Below are positions 1,275 to 58,106 of a DNA stretch of 64,000 nt, in pieces. Below the pieces are notes generated by a model, which searched no databases, had not been told where the DNA came from, and was given only the letters and a program-made list of their open reading frames with translations. The DNA is taken from positions 1-64,000 of the forward strand of contig RSEE01000022.1 in assembly GCA_003971905.1 (NCBI GenBank), written 5' to 3'. Source of the stretch: Moniliella sp. 'wahieum'. Taxonomy: Eukaryota. Numbering within the stretch: position 1 is the first letter of the stretch; the number at the start of each line of letters is the position of its first letter. The position numbers were made by a program, and so were the translations under genes.

Positions 1275-1524
1275 GGCAGCACGTGGAAAGCAATTAGCCC
1301 CGCAGTCACGTGCCAACCATGCAGTTAAATGAGAACGACGGCAAGAATAGCCAGAAGGAAAGGAGGGCAACAAAACCCGGCGACGAGCGAACAGAGGCAG
1401 AGTTACAAGCGAGGCGGGGGACGGGCAGCGGCCACACCATCTCCCAACCAAGTCCTCTCGCAGCCGAGAGGCGTTGCAGGAGGGAGTGTTTAAGTTAGGC
1501 CGGTTTGGCTGAGCAGACACCCAA

Positions 1525-1928
1525 ACCGCGGTGGTCTAACGGCGATGATGCATCTCTTCTACGTTCTCCATCCGCATGATGGCCCAAGCGAGGAACGCAA
1601 GCAGTGGTGACCTGTTAAGCCGCCCAAACACACCCACCTGGTCACAGGTTCGTTCCCCCACGAGCGCAAGCTTCATTTGCAAGCTGCTTAGGGGAGGGTG
1701 GAGTATAAGGGGGGTGCACACAGAAAAAGTATCACAAAACACAGGCCGCAAAGGGGGGGGCACTCCGTCCGATATCGATTGATATATGCCGAGATGCTTG
1801 AGTCCTGCCACAGGCTATGAGGCAAGCAGGTCTGGCGGCCTCCTTGACTCTGCTTTGTGCTGGCTTGCGTCCATCTCCGGAGAGAAACAGACAAGATTGA
1901 GATCCGGGTTCGACTCCCGGCCGCGGTA
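1525..1928 (+). tRNA. tRNA with anticodon TCT (nominally Arg) interrupted by a 331-nt intron (1562-1892)
   Basis: 5' exon 1525-1561: ACCGCGG TG GTCT AACGGCGA TGAT G CATCT CT TCT A. 3' exon 1893-1928: A AGATT GAGAT CCGGG TTCGACT CCCGG CCGCGGT A. Acceptor stem 7/7, T stem 5/5, anticodon stem 4/5, joined loop CTTCTAA. C32 (1556) can pair with the antepenultimate intron base G1890. T6 follows at 1932-1937. Confidence 0.8.
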
Positions 1929-1931
1929 GAC

Positions 1932-1937
1932 TTTTTT
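1932..1937 (+). terminator. Pol III oligo-T terminator
   Basis: TTTTTT 3 nt after the tRNA discriminator base. Confidence 0.75.
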
Positions 1938-3459: not shown

Positions 3460-6400
3460 GGAAGCACCGCCATCTTCGCCTCTTGGCCTGCACCTGGACA
3501 TGCGAGCCCGCTAACCGCTGCGTCGCACCCGCTCCGCTTCCCGCGATGGGGTTCTGGTTGGGGTGGACACGTGGGGCCGCAAGCCCACTTTGTCCACCTC
3601 GTCCGTCTGCCGCACCCCCCCGAGGAACGGGCAATGGGAGTCGGACCGGGAGAGGCGCACCTACCCGAGGAGGGGCAGTGGGAGTCGGACAGGCAGAGAG
3701 GCTCCGCGTCGACTTCGTTCCCTCGGCCCAGGTTCATCCGTGGGGCTCGGACCCACGAACCGCACGATGCTGACGGTCCGACGATGTCGTTTGGAGAGGG
3801 TATGGAGCTTGGGCAGTCGCGGAAAGTGGTGGATGGGGGCCTGCCCGGGGACCGGAACCGGCGACAGACGAGGGACAGCGACAAGATGCAAGCTGTGGTG
3901 AAGAAGATGCATTCCGAGTGGGCCGAGCAGAACCGGGAGTTCCAAGCGTCGTGGGACATGATCGCCGAGAAGATTGATGTGGACGTGGGTCCGGACCTGC
4001 ATGCGACGCAGACGACGTTGAAGGAGAACGTGTTTCGGTCAGGAGACTTTGTCCAAGTACGAGAGTAGGTCCAGTTTCTTCGTGTTTTGGGAGGGCGATG
4101 TGGGTGTGCTGCCTTGGTGGTGCGCATCAGAGAGATCAGAGAGGCTGACCGGTACCTGCAGACGCACGGGCACGTTTATGATTGGGGCGGTGGTACCCCC
4201 GCCTCCCGACGCAGCGAGTTCGATGGACGCGATTTACGTGTTGGGTGTGTCGGGAACGATCCATATGCAAAAAGGGAAGACGTATTGATGCATTTCCCCG
4301 CGATGCTGGACCCCCTTACATGTGCCCGAGCCAGGCCGCTGAGCTACTACATGTACGCGGGGCGAGGCGATGTTTGAGTCGTCTGGAATGGGTGCGGGGA
4401 CGATGGTTCAAGAAGGGACGGAGCCCATGGACCCGGCCCGCTTCCGTGCGCGTGCGGGACTCATCACGGTTCTCCGCATTTTCCGTCAACGCTGCACCAA
4501 GGCACGCTGTTCTGCACGAAGCCTTTCTTCAGCACTATGGCGCACGCCAAGTCTTGGCCAAGGACAACCAAGATGTGAAGGAAACCATGGCGGAGCGCAA
4601 GTGACGGTACATGAAGCGGCAAGGAAGTTGCTCTGCCATCTCGGCCATCCTCCTGACGCGGAAGTATCGCGTTCGCTTTATGTCGCTACCCACCCAGCTC
4701 TTCTTCCACGAACCCGAGACGTATGTGATTGACGATTACTCCTTCCGCACCTCCCAAACCTACACTGCTCGCAGCTGGCAGGAAACTGCGGTGATTCAGC
4801 AAGTGATGGAGTGGACCCGCGGGATCGAGGGAGAGACAACGAGTGCAGTCGGGTCCCAATCATCCAAGCGTTTGTCGACCGCGTCAAGCAGGTCCAAACT
4901 TGGCAAGCCGAACAAGGACGAGATTGATGCAGCGACGGCGGCACTCAAGTTGGGCGAGATGAAGCGATTCGAATTCCTGGGGTAACCTGGACGCCAGAAG
5001 ACCAAATCATCTTCCGCTTCCTCAAGTTGGTGCTCTTGCAGGGTCGTTATTTGCAACGTGACTTTATCACTGGGCCCGCCATGGTCATTCTCAAGCGAAT
5101 CACGGGCCCATGCCCATGTCGCCGTTACCGCTGGCTACCCCAGCCCAGCCGCGCGCGACAACCCACGATTATCCCGATGTGTCCAAGGCGCTGACGCATG
5201 CCAACCCGACATTTGTCAGTATGTTGGTCCGCCAGCTGTTGGAGCAGATGGGGGTGCTGGCGCCGTGGCAATCCCTTCTTTCGGAACTGCACACGTTCCC
5301 TTCTGCAGAGGAGGTGGTGAAAGAGGCGCGTGCCGAGCTAAACCAAGGCCGCGACGCGAGCAAGCCGGCGCAACAGTTCTTTGAGCCGCTGGACGTGGGC
5401 GTCCCGCGCACACGTTTCTCCCACCCAGTCTACGTGATTGACGATGCGGATGCGCGCGAGTTGGACGACGGAGTTTCGCTGGTGCCGATCGAAGGGTCGG
5501 ATGACATTTGGCTTCACGTTCACATTGCCGATCCCACAGCGTACTTTTCATCGACCAGTGCACTTGCCAAGGCGGCCTCCCATCAATTCTCCACGCTCTA
5601 CTACCCCGAAAAAACCTATCCCCTTTTGCCCGACGAACTGTTCAAGAGTCCGCCGGTCTGGCGGCGAGTGGAACGGAAGCCCAGCGTGCAATGACCTTCT
5701 CGGTGCGCCTCACGCCCGAGGGCAAGTCAGTGGCGTACGATGTGTCGTTGTCGTTGTTGGAAGATGTACGGACGCGGAGGTATGATGAGGTGGATGCCTT
5801 TCTGTCGCTTCCCTTGGCGGCAGTGGAGCCATCCCAGAAGGCAGAGTGGCAAGCGCTCACCCGATTGCGAACGTACCTGTTTGAGGTACAAAAGCGGCGA
5901 TGGAAGAACCATGGACAGTTGCCTCCACCTTTTTCAGGCCCGGTGGTGAATACCCCTTCGTTGCTCGAGCCACCACCTGCTTTAGCGCCTGCTGTCTTCC
6001 TCGGTGGGCCCGATGTGCAGATGAAGGAGCAAGATACGGTGGCACTAAGCAAGGGAGGAGGCACTGGGGCTCCTTGGAGCCCGAGACAGCGGACGAGTAC
6101 AGTATCCGGGCCGTGGTGGCAGAGGCTATGATTCTTGCCGGACGAGTTGCCGGAAAGTGGGCGGTGGATAAGAAGGTGGCGCTGCCCTACATTGGGCTGG
6201 AGCCGCCCGAGAAGAAACGGTTGGAGAAGCGATGAAAGCGTATCCGTCTCGGTTTGGAGCGATGACACGACGTGTGTTCCTCAAGCTCAACTCGCTCTCC
6301 ACCTACACTGCCCCGCACCCTGTCGTGCACGTTGCGATGGGCTTCGCGCCGCTCCCGTACTATCCCCCTGGGGAGCCCGAGGCTCTGGATGGATCGGGTA

Positions 6401-20961: not shown

Positions 20962-21061
20962 TGATCGAACCCGGGATCGAACCGGGGACCTTACGCGTCT
21001 CAACGAGACCTGCTGCTCCAGGATGTGAAGCGTACGTCATGACCAGCTAGACCATCCGACC
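20962..21061 (-). tRNA. tRNA-Val(CAC) with 26-nt intron
   Basis: Reverse complement: GGTCGGA TG GTCT AGCTGGTCA TGAC G TACGC TT CAC A [26 nt] C GCGTA AGGTC CCCGG TTCGATC CCGGG TTCGATC A, then TTTTT. Confidence 0.95.
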
Positions 21062-21790
21062 GTGATGCTCAGCCTGTTTCCTCTTCCGTCGTCTGTTCCC
21101 CCGGGGCATGATCATATTAGCCCAACAACATCGATTCCAAACCCATGAACGCATCCGCATCCGCCTCCGCCTTACCCAGGCCCGAGCGCGTCAATTCCTT
21201 GTAACGCACTCCGGATTCGATGGGAAAGAGCCTGGTAGGGCAGTGTTAGGCACCACTTTCCCTGTCCCACACTTGCGTTTTGCAAATGATATCAAGCTTC
21301 AAGCCAATAACAGGAAGAGTAAGCTACCAACCCACACAATAGTAAGCGCCGTTAGCGAACGCTGCTGGAGTGGCGCACTGAAAATGCTGAACTAGACCAC
21401 GTTGAATCTTAAAGTGAACTACCAGAACAGCCGGGAACCTTATCGCATGGGAACCCCATCAACGTCAACGTCGTCGCTGATTCCTAAAACAGAGGGTCAA
21501 AACGCATCCGCCATCCTGCCCGTGCCAGTCCCCCGCCCCTTGTCCCCCAGCAACCACCTGATCAACAATTCGAATTACATTAGTTCCGTCCCATGTCCCC
21601 CACCCTCCCCCACGCCTCCCATCGACCTACGAGCCCAAGGCAGAGAGGAATCGGCGAGAGAGAACCCGGCCCCAAATGAAATACCTCGCCTAGCCTGGTC
21701 TGGTCTAGCCTGGTCTGGTTTCGCCTCGCCTGGCCCCAGGGTGCAACAAGTCGGGTGACCAGCGGGTCGTTCAACGTTCATCGATCACGC

Positions 21791-27384: not shown

Positions 27385-30300
27385 TCACGCATGCGGCGGC
27401 GCAAAGGGAGCACGGGCAGGCACCTTACGCCCGCGGTGCTCATTCCAGTCGGCTGGCGCACAGAAGTTGCAGTACCACGGATCCACGTCCTGGGCGTTGC
27501 GCAGCCCACACACCGCATGTGGAACCACTCGCGCGGACACGGCCCGTTGTCGCACCGCACCATCTGCCATCTCATGGTCAGTACCATACCATACCATCCA
27601 TACCCATCCCACGCCCAGTCGTCCCACACGCAGGGGGGAGACGCCACGTACCGTGCCGTAACTTGAACGCCCGCATAGCAGTACGACTGCTTCTCTTCGC
27701 TTCCTTCTCTGTCAGCAACGCGATCACCATCACCATCACCATCCCCATCATTATCACCATCACCATCGTGCGCTTGATCTTGCTCCGCCTCTTGCCCTCC
27801 GTGCTGTTTCGTCTCATTCTCAGCCGCTCCTTCTTCACGTCCTGCACCTGTCCCTCACCCGCCACGGCAGAGGACGGTTGGCTCTTGGCGGCGCGATGAC
27901 GGTAATCCGTCGTTTCTTACTGGGAGGTGCTGGTGCGGGGGCATCGGTGGCACGGAGCGAGCGCGCTCGCTTCGTCCGTCCCCGAATAGGTTTTGCTTGG
28001 AACCGAAGGCTTGGGCCCGGTGGATCCTTCGCGTGAGTGCGCGTGCCAACCGTACGCGCCGGTGGATTCGGGGTGAGTGCGCGTGCCAACCGTACGCGCC
28101 GGCAGATCTTCGGGGGCACTCGTAGCAGCCGCAGGCGCTGGGGCGCTTGAGGCACTGGGACTCAGGGGTGCTGGCTCCAGGTCAGGAGCAGTGCGAGAGC
28201 GGCGAGTAGAGCGGCGGGGCGGTGCCTCGGTTGTCGTGGGCGAGGGCAGAGAAGCAGTCGCCTGAGGCTTAGGCGCGAGGCACGACGAGACCGTGTCTTG
28301 GGCCGTGACTCGGTCGAAGGCGCAGGTTCGGCGGCGGGAGCAGGAGCCATATCGGACTCGGAAGTAGGAGCTGGAGCGCGTTCCAGTTCTACAGCGGGGT
28401 AGGCGCAGGAACCGGCACGGGGTCAGACTCTGCTCAGGATGAGGATCCAACTCCTGCAGAGACAAGAAGGACGGTGCGGCAACGAGCTAGCTGTGGATCA
28501 GAACCAGGATCAGAACGGGGGAAGGAAGGCAGAACGGCTGATCATCCGTGGCAGGGACAGGGCCCTGAGGACCTGGTAAGAGGGCGAATTGTCCAGGGAA
28601 AATGGTGCCAGGGTGGAGCAGCGGGAGAGAAACAGAGGACGCCAAAGAGGTCGCAGGAGGTGGTACGTGGGCACCCACCCCATCGTTGCTCTGGTTGTTG
28701 AGCATCACACCAGGCGCTGAGGCCGGGGCAGTGCTAACTCCTCAACCAGTGGCAGCGGGAAGTCTAGCCTAGGGCGGCGAGGTACCCTCTGAGAGGCGGT
28801 TGGCGGCAGCCTTCTTGGGTGGGCTCGGGGTAGGGGTTGCGTTGCCGGCGGAGAGGTCTCCAGAGGCAGAGGAGGTTTCGAGCCCACGGTTGAGGCAGCG
28901 GAGGGAGCCGCAATTTCGTCCTCTGCTGATGGCTGGGTCGACGGATTGCCCGAGATGGGCTCCGTCGTGGACCCCGTCGTGACCTCGGGCGTGGGCTCCA
29001 CGGTGGACACACCATCGTGGTAGATCCGGGCGCGCTTGCGGGAGTGGCTGGAGGAATAGCCTGCTCATCGGGGATGGAGACTTCGGCCGGCAGCGGTTGT
29101 GGATCGACGGCAGTGGGGAGAGGGATCCGTGAGCGGTGTCGGGTGTCTGGGTGGGAAGATCAGGTAAAGGTGGACGCTCCTTCTCAGGTTCGTCAGGAGG
29201 TCCCTTGGGCTCCATCACAGGCTCGTCAGGATACGTGTCCGGCTCCACCTCCATCTCTTCCGGCTGAACCGCCTCGTTAGCTTCTGCGCGAGGCACGTCT
29301 GGTTCCCCTCCCACCTCCGTGGGGTGTATGCTCTCGTCGACAACCGCACTTTCCCCCGGGGCAGGGCCGCCTCTCCTGCAGCCTCAGCCGAATGAATAGG
29401 GAGCATGCCCTCCACCTCGGCCAGCTCGGCTCCTTCCCCATCCGGTTCGTGAAGTACGGTTCTCTCCTTCAGCGTCATCGCCCCAGGCGCTGGCGCTGGC
29501 CCAGATGCGTCGCCTGGTACCACGTGTGGCTCGACACTCGTTCCCTGCGCCATCTCCCCAGTCTGGCTGTTGCGAGGAGCCTTGTCGTTCTCGACAGGCT
29601 CGTCAGTCTCTGCAGTCTCGACGTAAACGTGCTCCCCACCCTCGATGTGTTCCCCGCCCTCAACGTGCTCCGCACCCTCGACGTGCTCCGCACCCTTACC
29701 GTGCTCCGCATCCTCACCGTTCTCTCCGCCTTGGCCATGCGCACCACTATGCTCCCCCTCATTTTCAGCGGGCGGCATGGCGGGCGGGTGCGGGTCGAGC
29801 TGTGGGCCAAGAGGCGCAGGGAGGGTGGGGACGCCAGCGGCACGTTCGCACGCAGAGACCATTGCGCGGTTCTCCGCACCCAGAATCTGGTGGGCTCGAC
29901 GAAGGTGGCAAGCGAGGCCGTTGTGAGTACGGCCGCGGTAGGTGCACTGCGGACACGCCCAGACGCCCTCCTCGACGATACGACGTTTCTTTCTGGGTTG
30001 CTTGGCTTGCCTCGGTTCGACGTCGGGGTCGGCGTCGGGGTCGTAGTCGGCGTCGGCGTCGGGAGCGGCGGTGGGCCGAGACGAGGTGGTAGGTGCCAAT
30101 CGAGGCGTGGTGGCTGCGTGAGAAGGCGAGGGGAGAGTGGGAGAGGGAACGGGGACGGGAACGGGGAGGGGGACGGGGACGGGGACGAGAGCAGGCAAGC
30201 GGTGGATCTGGTCCATAGGCAAGGGTCCTTCATGGTCCGGCTTGGCCCTCCAATGGCCCGAGAGCTGCTTGAGATGGCGACAGGTGTAGACGCATCGAGG

Positions 30301-33050
30301 GCACTGGAACCGTTCGGTTTGGAGTGTAGGAGACGGGTCGGGAACCAGCACCGCCTCGGGCTCGCCGCGTCCGCGACTTCGTCCCACCCTTGCTGGCGAT
30401 CGGGCCGGCGTGGCCTGATGGTCGTACCGACTCATATGCCGCTTCCAATTCGACGTGGAAACGACCAGGGAGCAGATGGGGCACGTGCGCTCAGCCCCCG
30501 ACCGCGCTGGCTCCTTACTGGGAGAGGGAGCGGTGGGAGCCAGAGCCTGGCCCTCGGCCAGAGCATGGTAGTACGCCTCGGTCCCGTCCACGAGCGGATG
30601 GGCCGCCAGGGGCACCTCGGCGGCAGGAGAGGGAGGATGGAGCAATAGATAGATCTCCCTCGCGCGGGATGCTCCAATCTGAGTGGGAGCGTGGACGTCA
30701 GGATGAGAGAGCTGTGAGATGAGAGCAAGAATGTCGAGCACGAGCAACTCTGTCCTCTTTCTCTGAGGGGAAGGCAGGACCGACTTGAGGTCAACATGAA
30801 ACGCGTGCCCCATCGCAGCGAGATAGGCTTCCACGCTCTCTGTCAGCTCATCGCAGTCACCCTGTTCAAGCGGGGCGTCAAACACGGATGTGTCCCAGTT
30901 TCGCTCCTCAAAGGCCTGGGAAGCGACCAAGAGCTGGCAAGTGATCGCTTCACCAAACACATCAATCTCATAGTAGAGCTGCTGCGCGCGCTCCACCCTC
31001 TCGCGAGCAAGAATGGAGAGTGCCTGCGCACCACGCTCAAGCGGCTCGAGCGTGTCTCCCCGTTCGATCCAAGCTAGAAGAGCTGCGCGTTCATGTGCAA
31101 AGGCAGAGCGGAGCGTGGCGAGCACTTGGGCCTGCTCCAAGACCGACTGTGGGAGCGTATGTAGAACTGGTATGAGGGAGGGAGGGGATGTCAGTATTTT
31201 TTTGTTTTTTCCTCAGAGAGACAGGAACGTACAAGGTTGATATTCCTTTTGCCAGGGATAACTCTCGGTTAAGACAGGGGAAACGGATTCCACGGTCATG
31301 GGAAAGTCAGGAGGCACGATGCTAGACAATCGGGGAGGTGCAATGGGCACAATCTGTGCTTCTTCAGGGGGGCTCCACCCCAACTGAGGAAGATCAACTT
31401 TCACGCGAGCGACGAGTGACAGATCCGAAGGATGCGACTGGCGAACCGAATCAAGCACGGCGTCCAGCCGTTTGCGGGTCGAAGAGGCGAGAGAACGGGC
31501 ACGTTGGGCATCTTGCTTCTTTTGAATTTCGAGGGGAGGGCAAATGGTCTCAGCCTCCAACATCTCCTCCTGGGTAGGAGGAACAGCGAGTGGTGCCACA
31601 GTCTCCAACACCATTCGCAACACCGCTTGCACCGCCCGTGCGGCCATGACGTGGCGAGCAATATATCCAGGGGGGACGGGAAGATGTGGAATGGGGGAGC
31701 AGACATCCTCAACGGTCGGGGGGTCTCCTCAACGGCGGAGGGGGCACCCTCCTCATCAAAGGCCGGGACATCATCAACAGGGGAAGAGAAATGCGCCGCA
31801 GTGGGGGCTGCGTCCTCAACGAGGGGAGGGGACGCGTCCTCAACGGGGCGGGCAGGGGAGGCACCGCCAATAAGGCCTGGCAGATCATCAGCGGAGGCAT
31901 AGGCCTCTTTACCTGGGCTGCGGGTCCCCTCGCCAGCGGTAGGCGCATCCTCAGCAGCAAGGACAGCAGAGGGGTCTTCCACCGCGTCGGGGTCGTCGTC
32001 AGGGGACCGGAGTATCTGCAGCGGGGCCTGATGCATCCTCACCGGCGACCGTACGATCCTTGACTAGGCGTGAGGCATCATCCGTGGGTCCAGGAGCGGA
32101 TTGATCAGCAGCGGTAACCGGGGCCTCATGAAGATTATCATCCCCAGGGACCGGACACCCTGATGGGAGGCAAAGCTTTGCTGCTCAGGGGTGGAGATGT
32201 CCTCTGCCACGCGGTCCGAGACGTGCTGCATCGGAGCAAGAAGGACCTCGTCAGCGGGGCCGGGGGAGCACTGGACGGAGGCCGGGCCACCTTCCAATGG
32301 GGCATGGGAATGAGCATGGGCATGGACGTGGACATGTACATGAACATGGTCATGAGCATGAGCATGAGCATCGGCATCGGCGTCGGCATCGGCATCCTGG
32401 ATGGCCGGGGAAAAGTGCTCGGCGAATGCCAAGGGGGAGGGGCGATCGTCCATAGAGAGAGAAGACGAGCCTAGGTCGGACGACGAAGAGCCCGGGTCGG
32501 AAGGAGTAGGCGAGCGGAGGAGGGGCACAAGGGTGCGTCGGGTGCTCCTGGCTGCCTTGAACGGCGAGGGGGGGTCGGCCTCGGGTTCGGTCAGGTCCAG
32601 GTCCAGGTCCGGGTCCAGATCGAGGTCCAAGTCCAGGTCCAGGTCCAAGTCAGAATCCAGGTCCAGGTCGGCGTCACCATCAGCGTCAGCGTCAGCGTCA
32701 GCATCAGCGTCGGCTTCTTCGTCCAGGGCGTGGCGGCGGCGGCGGGCGGCGGGGGTAGGGGAGGAGGGGAGGTGTCCGGCGTGCCTGCGCTGCAACGCCT
32801 CGCGCCGGAGCTGCTCGTGGCCTTCTGGGAGGCGAGCAGCGCGGCTGCGCGCGGGGCGCGTGCGGACGGGAAGGGGGCGGGCGAGGGCCCAGGGGACGAG
32901 AGCGGCGACGCCGACGCACGCACCCACGCGCCCGCCGCCGCGCCCGCCGCCGCGCCGCCGCGCCCAGCGGCGACGACACACGCGACGATGCACGCGACGA
33001 TACACGCGACGACGCATGCGACGACGCCGGGGCAGAGGCGCGCACACGCG
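27385..33050 (-). CDS. Large low-complexity nuclear protein with three C2H2 zinc fingers and a C-terminal ING-type PHD finger (start uncertain)
   Basis: C2H2 motifs CPIC...HMSRYDH, CPRC...HWRAKPDH and CPQC...HLRRAH in ORF 29215-31140. PHD: YC.CGRSSYG|MVRCDNGPCPREWFHMRCVGL...WYCNFC at ~27450-27690. Colinear minus-strand ORFs fill the gaps. Confidence 0.65.
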
Positions 33051-34338: not shown

Positions 34339-35103
34339 TTATACGAGCAAGGCGCTCAGTTGGGGTAGCTTGTTCTGTAGTGGGGTTAGAGAGGACATCA
34401 AGCTGGCGGGGGACCAACAACGTACGCCAGGAATAAAGTGCCGTTCCACCCCCGTTTCCGAGATGTCGGTCATGCGGATCGTGCCGCCCGATGAGCCATC
34501 GCGGGACATGGCGAGGGCAAGCGCTTCCGAGCAGTGTTAGCTGGAGTCCAATGCAGAAAAACGAAATACACATACCATTCTTGACAAACTCGAGCGTCTG
34601 CTCCTTGTTCATCCCCGGCTTCCAATTGGCATCGCAGTAACCGTAAATGTAGGACGAACCGGAGCCGCAATGGCCAATGGCCCAGGGCTGTTGGAACAGG
34701 CCCCCTCCGAGCGGAACATTGAACACAGACCCACCAAACTTGGGGTCCCAGCCAGCCACAATGATGCCAGCTGACAGCGCGTCCTTGTTCTGGTACACCA
34801 CTTCCTGGAACAGCGACGCGGCCGTCTTGACAGGCGGCTGGCCATGCTCGACCGAGTAAACGCTGAGATAATAGGTGATCATGTCCGCCACGGCCTGGTG
34901 TCGGCAGCCGAGCCACTGCGGCAACAGTAGATGCGGTCGGAGATGTGGGTGAGCTTGTCGGTCACGCGGTTGGCAATGTAAGAGCCCATGGTGGTACGAC
35001 TATCAGCACCAAGGACGACGCCTCCGTCGTAGGCGACAGCCATGATGGACGTGCCGAGATTGACCTCGCCCTCCTTGAGATGCTGGACGTCAATGTCGTT
35101 CAT
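34339..35103 (-). CDS. PRE3: 20S proteasome subunit beta1
   Basis: Propeptide ending EVNLG, then catalytic [33 protein letters not shown]. Two 3' introns. Confidence 0.95.
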
Positions 35104-57389: not shown

Positions 57390-58106
57390 ATGCCTTCTCC
57401 CCCCCCGGCCGCAGCAGCCCGCATGCGGCCTACAACGCGGGATCGCAAGCTGGCTGTGCTGGGCAGCCGAAACGTCGGCAAATCCTCCCTCGTGGTGCGG
57501 TATGTGGAGGGGGTGTTTGTCGACAGCTACTACCCCACCGTCGAGGGTACCTTCACCAAGGACATCCGCTTCCATCAGCAAGTGTACCCGTGCCACATTA
57601 TCGACACGGCAGGCCAAGACGAATTTTCGTTGCTGTATTCGCACCATGCCGAGGGCATTCAAGGCTTTTTGATTGTCTTTGCCCTCAACAGCCGCGCCTC
57701 CTTTGACATTGCCCCCGCCATCTGCGCAAAATCTCCGAACGTACCGGTCTGGAGTCCCTCCCCGCCGTGCTGGTTGGACAAAAATCCGACCTGCACCAGC
57801 AGCGCAAGGTATCGCGGGAAGAAGGGAAGAAAATGGCCCGAGAACTGGGCCTGCCGTACATTGAAACGTCCGCACGACACGGAACGAATGTTGGTACGTC
57901 TGTCCGCCTTCCCCTTTGGGCCTCGGTGCAGCGCGCTGCCTCCGAGCGCAGAACCTCGAGATGCGGGACAGGCAGAACTGACCTTATCTCAACCCGCAGA
58001 CCAAGTGTTCCAACTACTGCTTGAGCAAACAGAGAAGCATCTTCAGCCCCAGCCAACACTGCCGGCACCAAGCACGAAGGAAGAGAGCGCATGCAACGTG
58101 ATGTGA
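57390..58106 (+). CDS. RHB1: Rheb small GTPase
   Basis: G1 LGSRNVGKSS (Rheb-type Arg), effector DSYYPTVE, DTAGQDEFS, ETSA, CaaX CNVM. Intron ~57894-57999. Confidence 0.93.
   Translation: MPSPPPAAAARMRPTTRDRKLAVLGSRNVGKSSLVVRYVEGVFVDSYYPTVEGTFTKDIRFHQQVYPCHIIDTAGQDEFSLLYSHHAEGIQGFLIVFALNSRASFDIAPAICAKSPNVPVWSPSPPCWLDKNPTCTSSARYRGKKGRKWPENWACRTLKRPHDTERMLVRLSAFPFGPRCSALPPSAEPRDAGQAELTLSQPADQVFQLLLEQTEKHLQPQPTLPAPSTKEESACNVM

Follow-up and report, generated by a model that had tools for sequence, protein, structure and literature searches.

The window analysed here is a stretch of 64,000 nucleotides (nt) of contig RSEE01000022.1 from Moniliella sp. 'wahieum' (assembly GCA_003971905.1, positions 1 to 64,000 of the forward strand), and it carries near its start a transfer RNA (tRNA) gene for arginine, tRNA-Arg(UCU), whose two exons are separated by an intron of 331 nt. 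The split gene was matched by ARAGORN at positions 1525–1928 of the plus strand when introns were allowed, and once positions 1562–1892 had been excised in silico, ARAGORN called a canonical 73-nt tRNA-Arg(TCT) with a standard cloverleaf. The intron insertion point lies exactly between nucleotides 37 and 38 (37/38), the canonical site in the anticodon loop. The 5′ exon (1525–1561, plus strand; tRNA positions 1–37), which ARAGORN delimited both on the spliced sequence and with introns allowed, contains one strand of the acceptor stem (1525–1531), the D arm (1534–1549), one strand of the anticodon stem (1551–1555) and the anticodon TCT (1558–1560). The 3′ exon (1893–1928, plus strand; tRNA positions 38–73), delimited by ARAGORN on the spliced sequence, supplies the second strand of the anticodon stem (1894–1898), the variable loop (1899–1903), the T arm (1904–1920), the second acceptor strand (1921–1927) and the discriminator A1928. 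In the spliced tRNA the acceptor stem has 7 base pairs (bp), the T stem has 5 bp and the T loop reads TTCGACT. The intron itself (1562–1892, plus strand) has a G+C content of 56%, compared with 58.3% for the window, and its longest run of T is three.

The nucleotides around the two exon–intron junctions agree with those of introns that are removed by the tRNA splicing endonuclease. C1556, which is nucleotide 32 of the tRNA, is complementary to G1890, the nucleotide at intron position −3, so that the proximal (A-I) pair is possible. The distance from C32 to A37 is 6 nt, and A1891, C1892 and A1893 could form a bulge of 3 nt where the 3′ cut would fall. The same regularities are reported for all 16 intron-bearing pre-tRNAs of Drosophila (PMC6614914). 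The intron ends in the 3′ tail ACAGAC (1887–1892, plus strand), in which AGA at 1889–1891 can pair with the anticodon UCU at 1558–1560. When the tRNA body was constrained in the fold, UCU paired with this AGA and the two cut sites fell in internal loops of 2 × 2 and 3 × 2 nt; in the unconstrained ensemble the UCU/AGA pairing had a probability of 0.37–0.45. The unconstrained fold of the precursor also contained the acceptor stem (pair probability 0.89–1.0) and the T stem (0.49–0.81), with the intron forming a single long arm. A strict bulge-helix-bulge is absent from the intron. The tRNA species is itself a familiar host, the intron of tR(UCU) being described as conserved across animals and fungi (PMC12168002).

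Signals for RNA polymerase III (Pol III) lie within and around the gene. The B box, GGTTCGACTCC at 1907–1917 (plus strand), matches the pattern GGTTCGANNCC, which has just two matches in the window, one in each tRNA gene that ARAGORN found there with introns allowed (1525–1928 on the plus strand and 20962–21061 on the minus strand). The stretch TGGTCTAACGG at 1532–1542 (plus strand), read off the sequence and corresponding to tRNA positions 8–19, is what we take to be the A box. A run of six T residues (T6; 1932–1937, plus strand), a Pol III terminator by its sequence, begins 4 nt past the discriminator; after the second tRNA gene there is a T5 run. Upstream, the 9-mer GGCTGAGCA occupies positions −18 to −10 of the tRNA-Arg gene (1507–1515, plus strand). 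It has only two copies in the 64 kb, both strands counted, and each closely precedes a tRNA gene in the sense orientation, the other copy being at −13 to −5 of the second gene (21066–21074, minus strand). Because a random pair would not fall at those positions, we regard GGCTGAGCA as an upstream element common to both genes, perhaps one specific to the Pol III genes of this lineage; beyond GGCTGAGCA, the upstream regions of the two genes gave no wider alignment. Judged by such sequence signals, the B box, T6 and GGCTGAGCA together mark what appears to be a live Pol III gene.

Two further candidate signals were set aside. A B-box-like sequence within the intron, GGTTCGTTCC at 1647–1656, was dismissed, as three matches to the loose pattern were found and 3.05 were expected. 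Likewise, the lack of any T4 run in the intron, which might be offered as evidence of read-through by Pol III, is uninformative because 52% of the 331-nt stretches of the window are also without one. Separately, the 5′ leader holds an inverted repeat (1501–1511 and 1518–1528; 11 nt, 91% complementary, 6-nt loop) that covers the first four bases of the tRNA and could compete with formation of the acceptor stem in the precursor.

The two ends of the intron pair with each other. In the minimum free energy (MFE) structure and in constrained folds, a 5′ arm (1564–1589, plus strand), made up of TTCTC, TCCG, GATGG(C) and CAAGC, is joined to a 3′ arm (1863–1886, plus strand), made up of GCTTG, (G)CCATC, CGGA and GAGAA. 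An earlier note on this DNA, which was made from the sequence alone, had placed four complementary stretches here with a total of 22 Watson–Crick pairs, and all four are present and exact. The first three also hold as helices, with mean pair probabilities of 0.82–0.99 in the Boltzmann ensemble, but the fourth, between 1595–1602 and 1863–1870, has an ensemble pair probability of 0.0 despite its complementarity: in the MFE structure the partner of GCTTG at 1863–1867 is CAAGC at 1585–1589, which replaces ACGCAAGC at 1595–1602. We compared the duplex formed by the first 45 nt and the last 45 nt of the intron with those of dinucleotide shuffles. The terminal duplex had an energy of −37.0 kcal/mol, compared with −21.5 ± 5.3 kcal/mol for the shuffles, 11 of 1,000 of which were as good; of 193 other stretches of 331 nt taken from the window, 5 also matched its energy. 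This pairing is the sole fold signal of the intron above chance, and it exceeds chance modestly. In reporter tRNA introns that carry a large insert (an aptamer), splicing is reported to occur only when the bulge-helix-bulge-like motif is extended by a stem of 8 bp or more (PMC6614914), and for this reason the terminal stem is more simply explained as an aid to folding and splicing. A perfect 10-nt palindrome, TCTCCGGAGA, lies at 1874–1883 within the 3′ arm.

The remainder of the intron folds no better than shuffled sequence. The earlier note had held that the intron folds like a structured non-coding RNA (ncRNA), a claim that the whole-intron energies do not bear out: the MFE was −120.9 for the intron and −113.8 ± 5.8 for shuffles (z = −1.22, matched by 13 of 100 shuffles), and a repeat of the test gave z = −0.99 (20 of 150 as good). 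For the interior (1603–1862), z was −0.46 and 43 of 150 shuffles were as good. Eight segments were fold-tested in all, namely the whole intron, the interior and six smaller segments, for which z ranged from +0.29 to −2.18. The eight complementary stretches that the earlier note had listed along the intron are all where it put them, and seven are exact; the sixth (1696–1704 with 1762–1770) consists of seven Watson–Crick and two G–U pairs and not of Watson–Crick pairs throughout. As structure, the four of them that lie in the interior did not survive, since their sequences are present but their ensemble pair probabilities are 0.0–0.05. A direct repeat, AAGGGGGGTGCAC (1707–1719) and AAGGGGGGGGCAC (1751–1763), flanks an A-rich stretch in this region, its copies being 44 nt apart.

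Searches for known families agreed with the earlier note, which had been unable to assign the intron to one. With Rfam, the whole window gave zero matches at the gathering score, and positions 1400–2050 at E ≤ 10 gave six weak matches of 10.9–16.7 bits, to be set against gathering scores of 37–80; one of the six was a tRNA-like model placed on the T arm, and no group I, H/ACA, C/D, SRP, RNase P or MRP model was among them. The earlier note had pointed to an ACA triplet 3 nt from the intron 3′ end, as in H/ACA RNAs. This triplet is indeed there, at 1887–1889 in an intron that ends at 1892, and because ACA occurs 10 times in the 331 nt its placement carries only about 3% surprise. The hairpin-hinge-hairpin-tail layout of H/ACA RNAs is absent from the MFE and centroid structures, which contain a single long arm instead because the intron ends pair with each other. 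There is likewise no D box, as CTGA occurs nowhere in the intron; the nearest thing to a C box is ATGATGG at 1576–1582.

Searches for relatives were similarly negative. Exact words from the exons (a 24-mer of the 5′ exon and a 25-mer of the 3′ exon) had 0 matches each in metagenome contigs, a search that assembly indels could defeat. An 18-mer of the 5′ exon matched 15 loci in prokaryote genome contigs, about the number expected by chance, all of them bacterial and none with a tRNA. Two spurious open reading frames (ORFs) on the minus strand overlap the intron. The first (1536–1811, 91 amino acids) had no protein relative, and the second (1688–2152, 154 amino acids) had a single match, to an unrelated repeat protein (E = 2 × 10⁻⁵, 21–26% identity).

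The reading that we favour, and to which we give about an even chance of being right, is that 1525–1928 is a live nuclear tR(UCU) gene whose intron is canonical but oversized and probably leaves the precursor as a linear RNA that is then degraded. In this scheme, RNA polymerase III would start from the A and B boxes, read through the intron and stop at T6. The anticodon arm would then be prolonged by an interrupted helix of about 20 bp in which the two intron ends zip up, and by keeping the tRNA halves close to each other this terminal helix would allow the mature domain to fold. The tRNA splicing endonuclease, measuring from the mature domain and using the C32:G(−3) pair, would cut at 1561/1562 and 1892/1893, after which a Trl1-type ligase would join the exons, and the released 331-nt linear intron would be 5′-phosphorylated and degraded. 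The intron interior would serve no purpose in itself, and the terminal helix would act as a splicing aid and not as the scaffold of a hosted RNA. For fungi, exon joining by Trl1, phosphorylation of the linear introns and their degradation by Xrn1 are described, together with a lack of RtcB (PMC6614914; PMC4536317).

Compared with canonical introns processed by the Sen/TSEN endonuclease, and with that of tR(UCU) in particular (PMC12168002; PMC4090602), the Moniliella intron shares the tRNA species, the 37/38 position, a possible C:G proximal pair, the 6 nt between C32 and the exon end, and an anticodon that pairs with the intron 3′ end. It differs in its length of 331 nt and in its interrupted terminal stem, which lengthens the anticodon arm by about 20 bp. 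If the gene is active, the size range of protein-spliced nuclear tRNA introns would extend well past the printed maxima, and the gene would be a natural test of the limit on A–B box separation and of the cargo that the Sen endonuclease will accept. The same limits are explored artificially by engineered "tornado/tricRNA" expression cassettes.

A number of observations weigh against a live gene with a canonical intron, length among them. Eukaryotic tRNA introns are given as 6–133 nt in a review (PMC4090602), and the longer metazoan introns as about 40–250 nt elsewhere (PMC4536317); at 331 nt the Moniliella intron is 2.5 times the review maximum and also exceeds the metazoan figure, so it falls outside the described length range. 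Literature searches confined to an open-access library gave no example of a nuclear tRNA intron longer than about 250 nt. The second tRNA gene of the window has an intron of just 26 nt, and budding-yeast tRNA introns are tens of nucleotides long, compared with 331 nt here. The intron also separates the A box from the B box by about 375 bp, a spacing that may approach or exceed what TFIIIC tolerates. The review describes TFIIIC binding only as occurring at "various distances" (PMC4090602).

The tRNA and its precursor add to these difficulties. The anticodon stem of the spliced tRNA has 4 bp and a C27:U43 mismatch, and the D stem has only 3 bp, one of them a G:U pair; the U13:U22 mismatch of the D stem, which the second tRNA gene of the window shares, speaks for the gene instead. 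In the unconstrained fold of the precursor the anticodon stem had a pair probability of only 0.3–0.4, and C32:G1890 had one of 0.001. At default settings ARAGORN found zero tRNA genes in the 64-kb window, and with introns allowed it favoured tRNA-Arg(CCG), a tRNA with a long extra arm whose intron would span 318 nt and lie at 32/33. We discarded the Arg(CCG) assignment because such an arrangement is abnormal for class I and the 37/38 reading yields a normal class I tRNA.

Two features of the intron interior also fit poorly with an intron devoid of function. The segment 1603–1745, in which C-rich tracts (1626–1660) pair with G-rich tracts (1691–1714), was the one sub-segment to fold better than shuffles; its z, −2.18, was the lowest and was equalled by 6 of 300 shuffles, a result that is non-significant after eight tests. 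The hexamer GCAAGC occurs five times in the intron (at 1597–1602, 1666–1671, 1679–1684 and 1822–1827 on the plus strand and at 1863–1868 on the minus strand), compared with 0.3 expected from its window-wide rate of 58 in 64 kb on both strands. This excess has a Poisson p of about 1.6 × 10⁻⁵, or about 0.03 after correction for 2,080 hexamers, and the copies give alternative pairing registers.

Long tRNA introns may be under-counted in fungal genomes. tRNA finders have short default limits on intron length, and under-counting is possible because ARAGORN at default settings missed the tRNA-Arg gene and in its intron mode mis-assigned both of the intron-bearing tRNA genes of the window.

A first alternative is that the gene is dead or dying, the intron having outgrown transcription, through the distance between the A and B boxes, or splicing, with other copies supplying tRNA-Arg(UCU). 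A length beyond every printed range, the spacing of about 375 bp, the C27:U43 mismatch and the weak D stem would all be expected of such a gene, and so would an interior that resembles unselected sequence in its fold (z = −0.46) and in its G+C content (56% against 58%). Set against this, no flaw is seen in the acceptor stem, the T arm or the B box; the terminator, GGCTGAGCA, the 37/38 position and the nucleotides of the proximal pair are all intact; and a terminal helix above chance suggests continued selection for foldability. Moreover, little weight can be placed on single mismatches in the tRNA, because the assembly has indel errors. Three conserved genes of the window shift frame without an intron-like spacer, namely those for an RNB-domain RNase (about 5,640–5,660, plus strand), a proteasome beta subunit (about 34,880–35,000, minus strand) and a Ras/Rheb-like GTPase (about 57,715–57,730, plus strand), and these shifts are probably single-base indel errors in the assembly. 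By the same token, the lengths of homopolymers in the intron are uncertain. Altogether, we consider it rather unlikely that the gene is dead.

A second alternative concerns the origin of the intron and would fit a live or a dead gene alike. It holds that the interior is a foreign insertion, either a foldback element or miniature inverted-repeat transposable element (MITE) or filler DNA, in an ancestrally short tR(UCU) intron, the terminal helix then being the inverted ends of the insert. Short introns are the rule, as the 26 nt of the second tRNA gene illustrate, and the imperfect pairing of the intron ends resembles that of terminal inverted repeats. The outermost ends, however, are perfect over only 5 bp, and no target-site duplication was seen. 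Nor was a relative of the insert found: a blastn search of positions 1401–2000 against the window gave no second copy (the best non-self match was 13 nt, E = 1.3), and a blastn search with the intron in distant mode gave no match in plasmid and phage collections. On this evidence an insertion of foreign DNA seems unlikely. Another route to a long intron, tandem duplication of the tRNA, was rejected, as local alignments between the exons and the intron scored at or below the shuffle mean, with 278–423 of 500 shuffles as good, and similarity that does not rise above shuffles argues against such an origin.

The earlier note had proposed that the intron is a functional structured ncRNA, to which the tRNA contributes a promoter and the processing of its ends, and which persists as a stable linear or circular product. 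Half of this proposal stands: the 37/38 site, the intact mature domain, C32 and G(−3), the B box and T6 fit the release of a 331-nt RNA by tRNA splicing. For the other half, a hosted RNA, we found no positive evidence. The terminal duplex surpasses 989 of 1,000 shuffles, but such a stem is expected in any long intron that can be spliced. The low z of segment 1603–1745, the enrichment of GCAAGC (five copies where 0.3 are expected) and the ACA 3 nt from the 3′ end point towards a hosted RNA, and free yeast introns are reported to be able to act on mRNAs (bioRxiv 10.1101/2025.11.19.689297). Against it stand a whole-intron fold at the level of shuffles in both tests, proposed interior helices with pair probabilities of about 0, and the lack of an Rfam match, of a D box and of the two-hairpin layout of H/ACA RNAs. 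A circular product is unlikely because fungi are reported to be without RtcB, and in fungi described in this way linear introns are degraded (PMC6614914). The idea of a hosted RNA is thus unsupported rather than refuted, the case for it is weak, and we think it improbable that the intron is such an RNA.

The systems that might serve as precedents resemble the Moniliella intron in part. Its size and long terminal stem recall tric31905 (PMC4536317), a 113-nt intron of the Drosophila tRNA-Tyr gene CR31905 that is described as a stable circular RNA with a conserved structure, and this likeness speaks for a hosted RNA. Both are unusually large tRNA introns with a long stem prolonging the anticodon–intron helix, but tric31905 has base pairs that covary across species and is circularised by RtcB, whereas the interior of the Moniliella intron folds at the level of chance. 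The intron of archaeal tRNA-Trp, in which a box C/D small RNA is nested and which is a model of a guide RNA hosted by a tRNA intron (cited in PMC4090602), is alike only in the concept of a hosted RNA that the earlier note had put forward; here there is no CUGA D box, only a near C box and no strict bulge-helix-bulge, and the host is eukaryotic. The free tRNA introns (fitRNAs) of budding yeast are described as linear RNAs that are released by Sen, turned over by Xrn1 and possibly regulatory through pairing with mRNAs (bioRxiv 10.1101/2025.11.19.689297; PMC4102763). Group I introns of bacterial and organellar tRNAs also measure a few hundred nucleotides and lie in the anticodon loop, but no Rfam group I model matched at E ≤ 10, and the Moniliella gene has the features of a nuclear gene that is transcribed by Pol III and spliced by proteins at 37/38.

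More speculatively, the intron might be kept as an RNA in its own right, as a giant linear RNA of the fitRNA kind or a fungal analogue of a tricRNA, or as a cis domain that throttles the maturation of the only AGA decoder, with the GCAAGC copies and segment 1603–1745 as the core. We regard this as very improbable. A misjoin that placed the 331 nt inside an otherwise normal tRNA gene is hardly credible, for although the assembly is error-prone, with its three conserved genes that change frame, its known errors resemble single-base indels and not insertions, and the exact 37/38 site, the AGA complementary to the anticodon, G(−3) and the mutually pairing ends are unexpected from a random misjoin.

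The surroundings of the gene are those of a eukaryotic genome, with Pfam matches in the window to histone, Ras, proteasome, HLH, RNB, aldo-keto reductase and DUF3533 families. A spliceosomal intron of the type GTACGT...ACTGAC...CAG, about 105 nt long, interrupts the Ras-like gene. Judged from the sequence, the host is probably a filamentous fungus. An ORF of 641 amino acids (29215–31140, minus strand) had no protein match at a cut-off of 10⁻¹⁰, and an Atlas look-up with the RNB exon returned no informative taxa. The second tRNA gene (20962–21061, minus strand) was called by ARAGORN as tRNA-Leu(CAG) with its 26-nt intron at 35/36, despite a short variable loop; removal of 26 nt at 37/38 (21023–20998) gave tRNA-Val(CAC).

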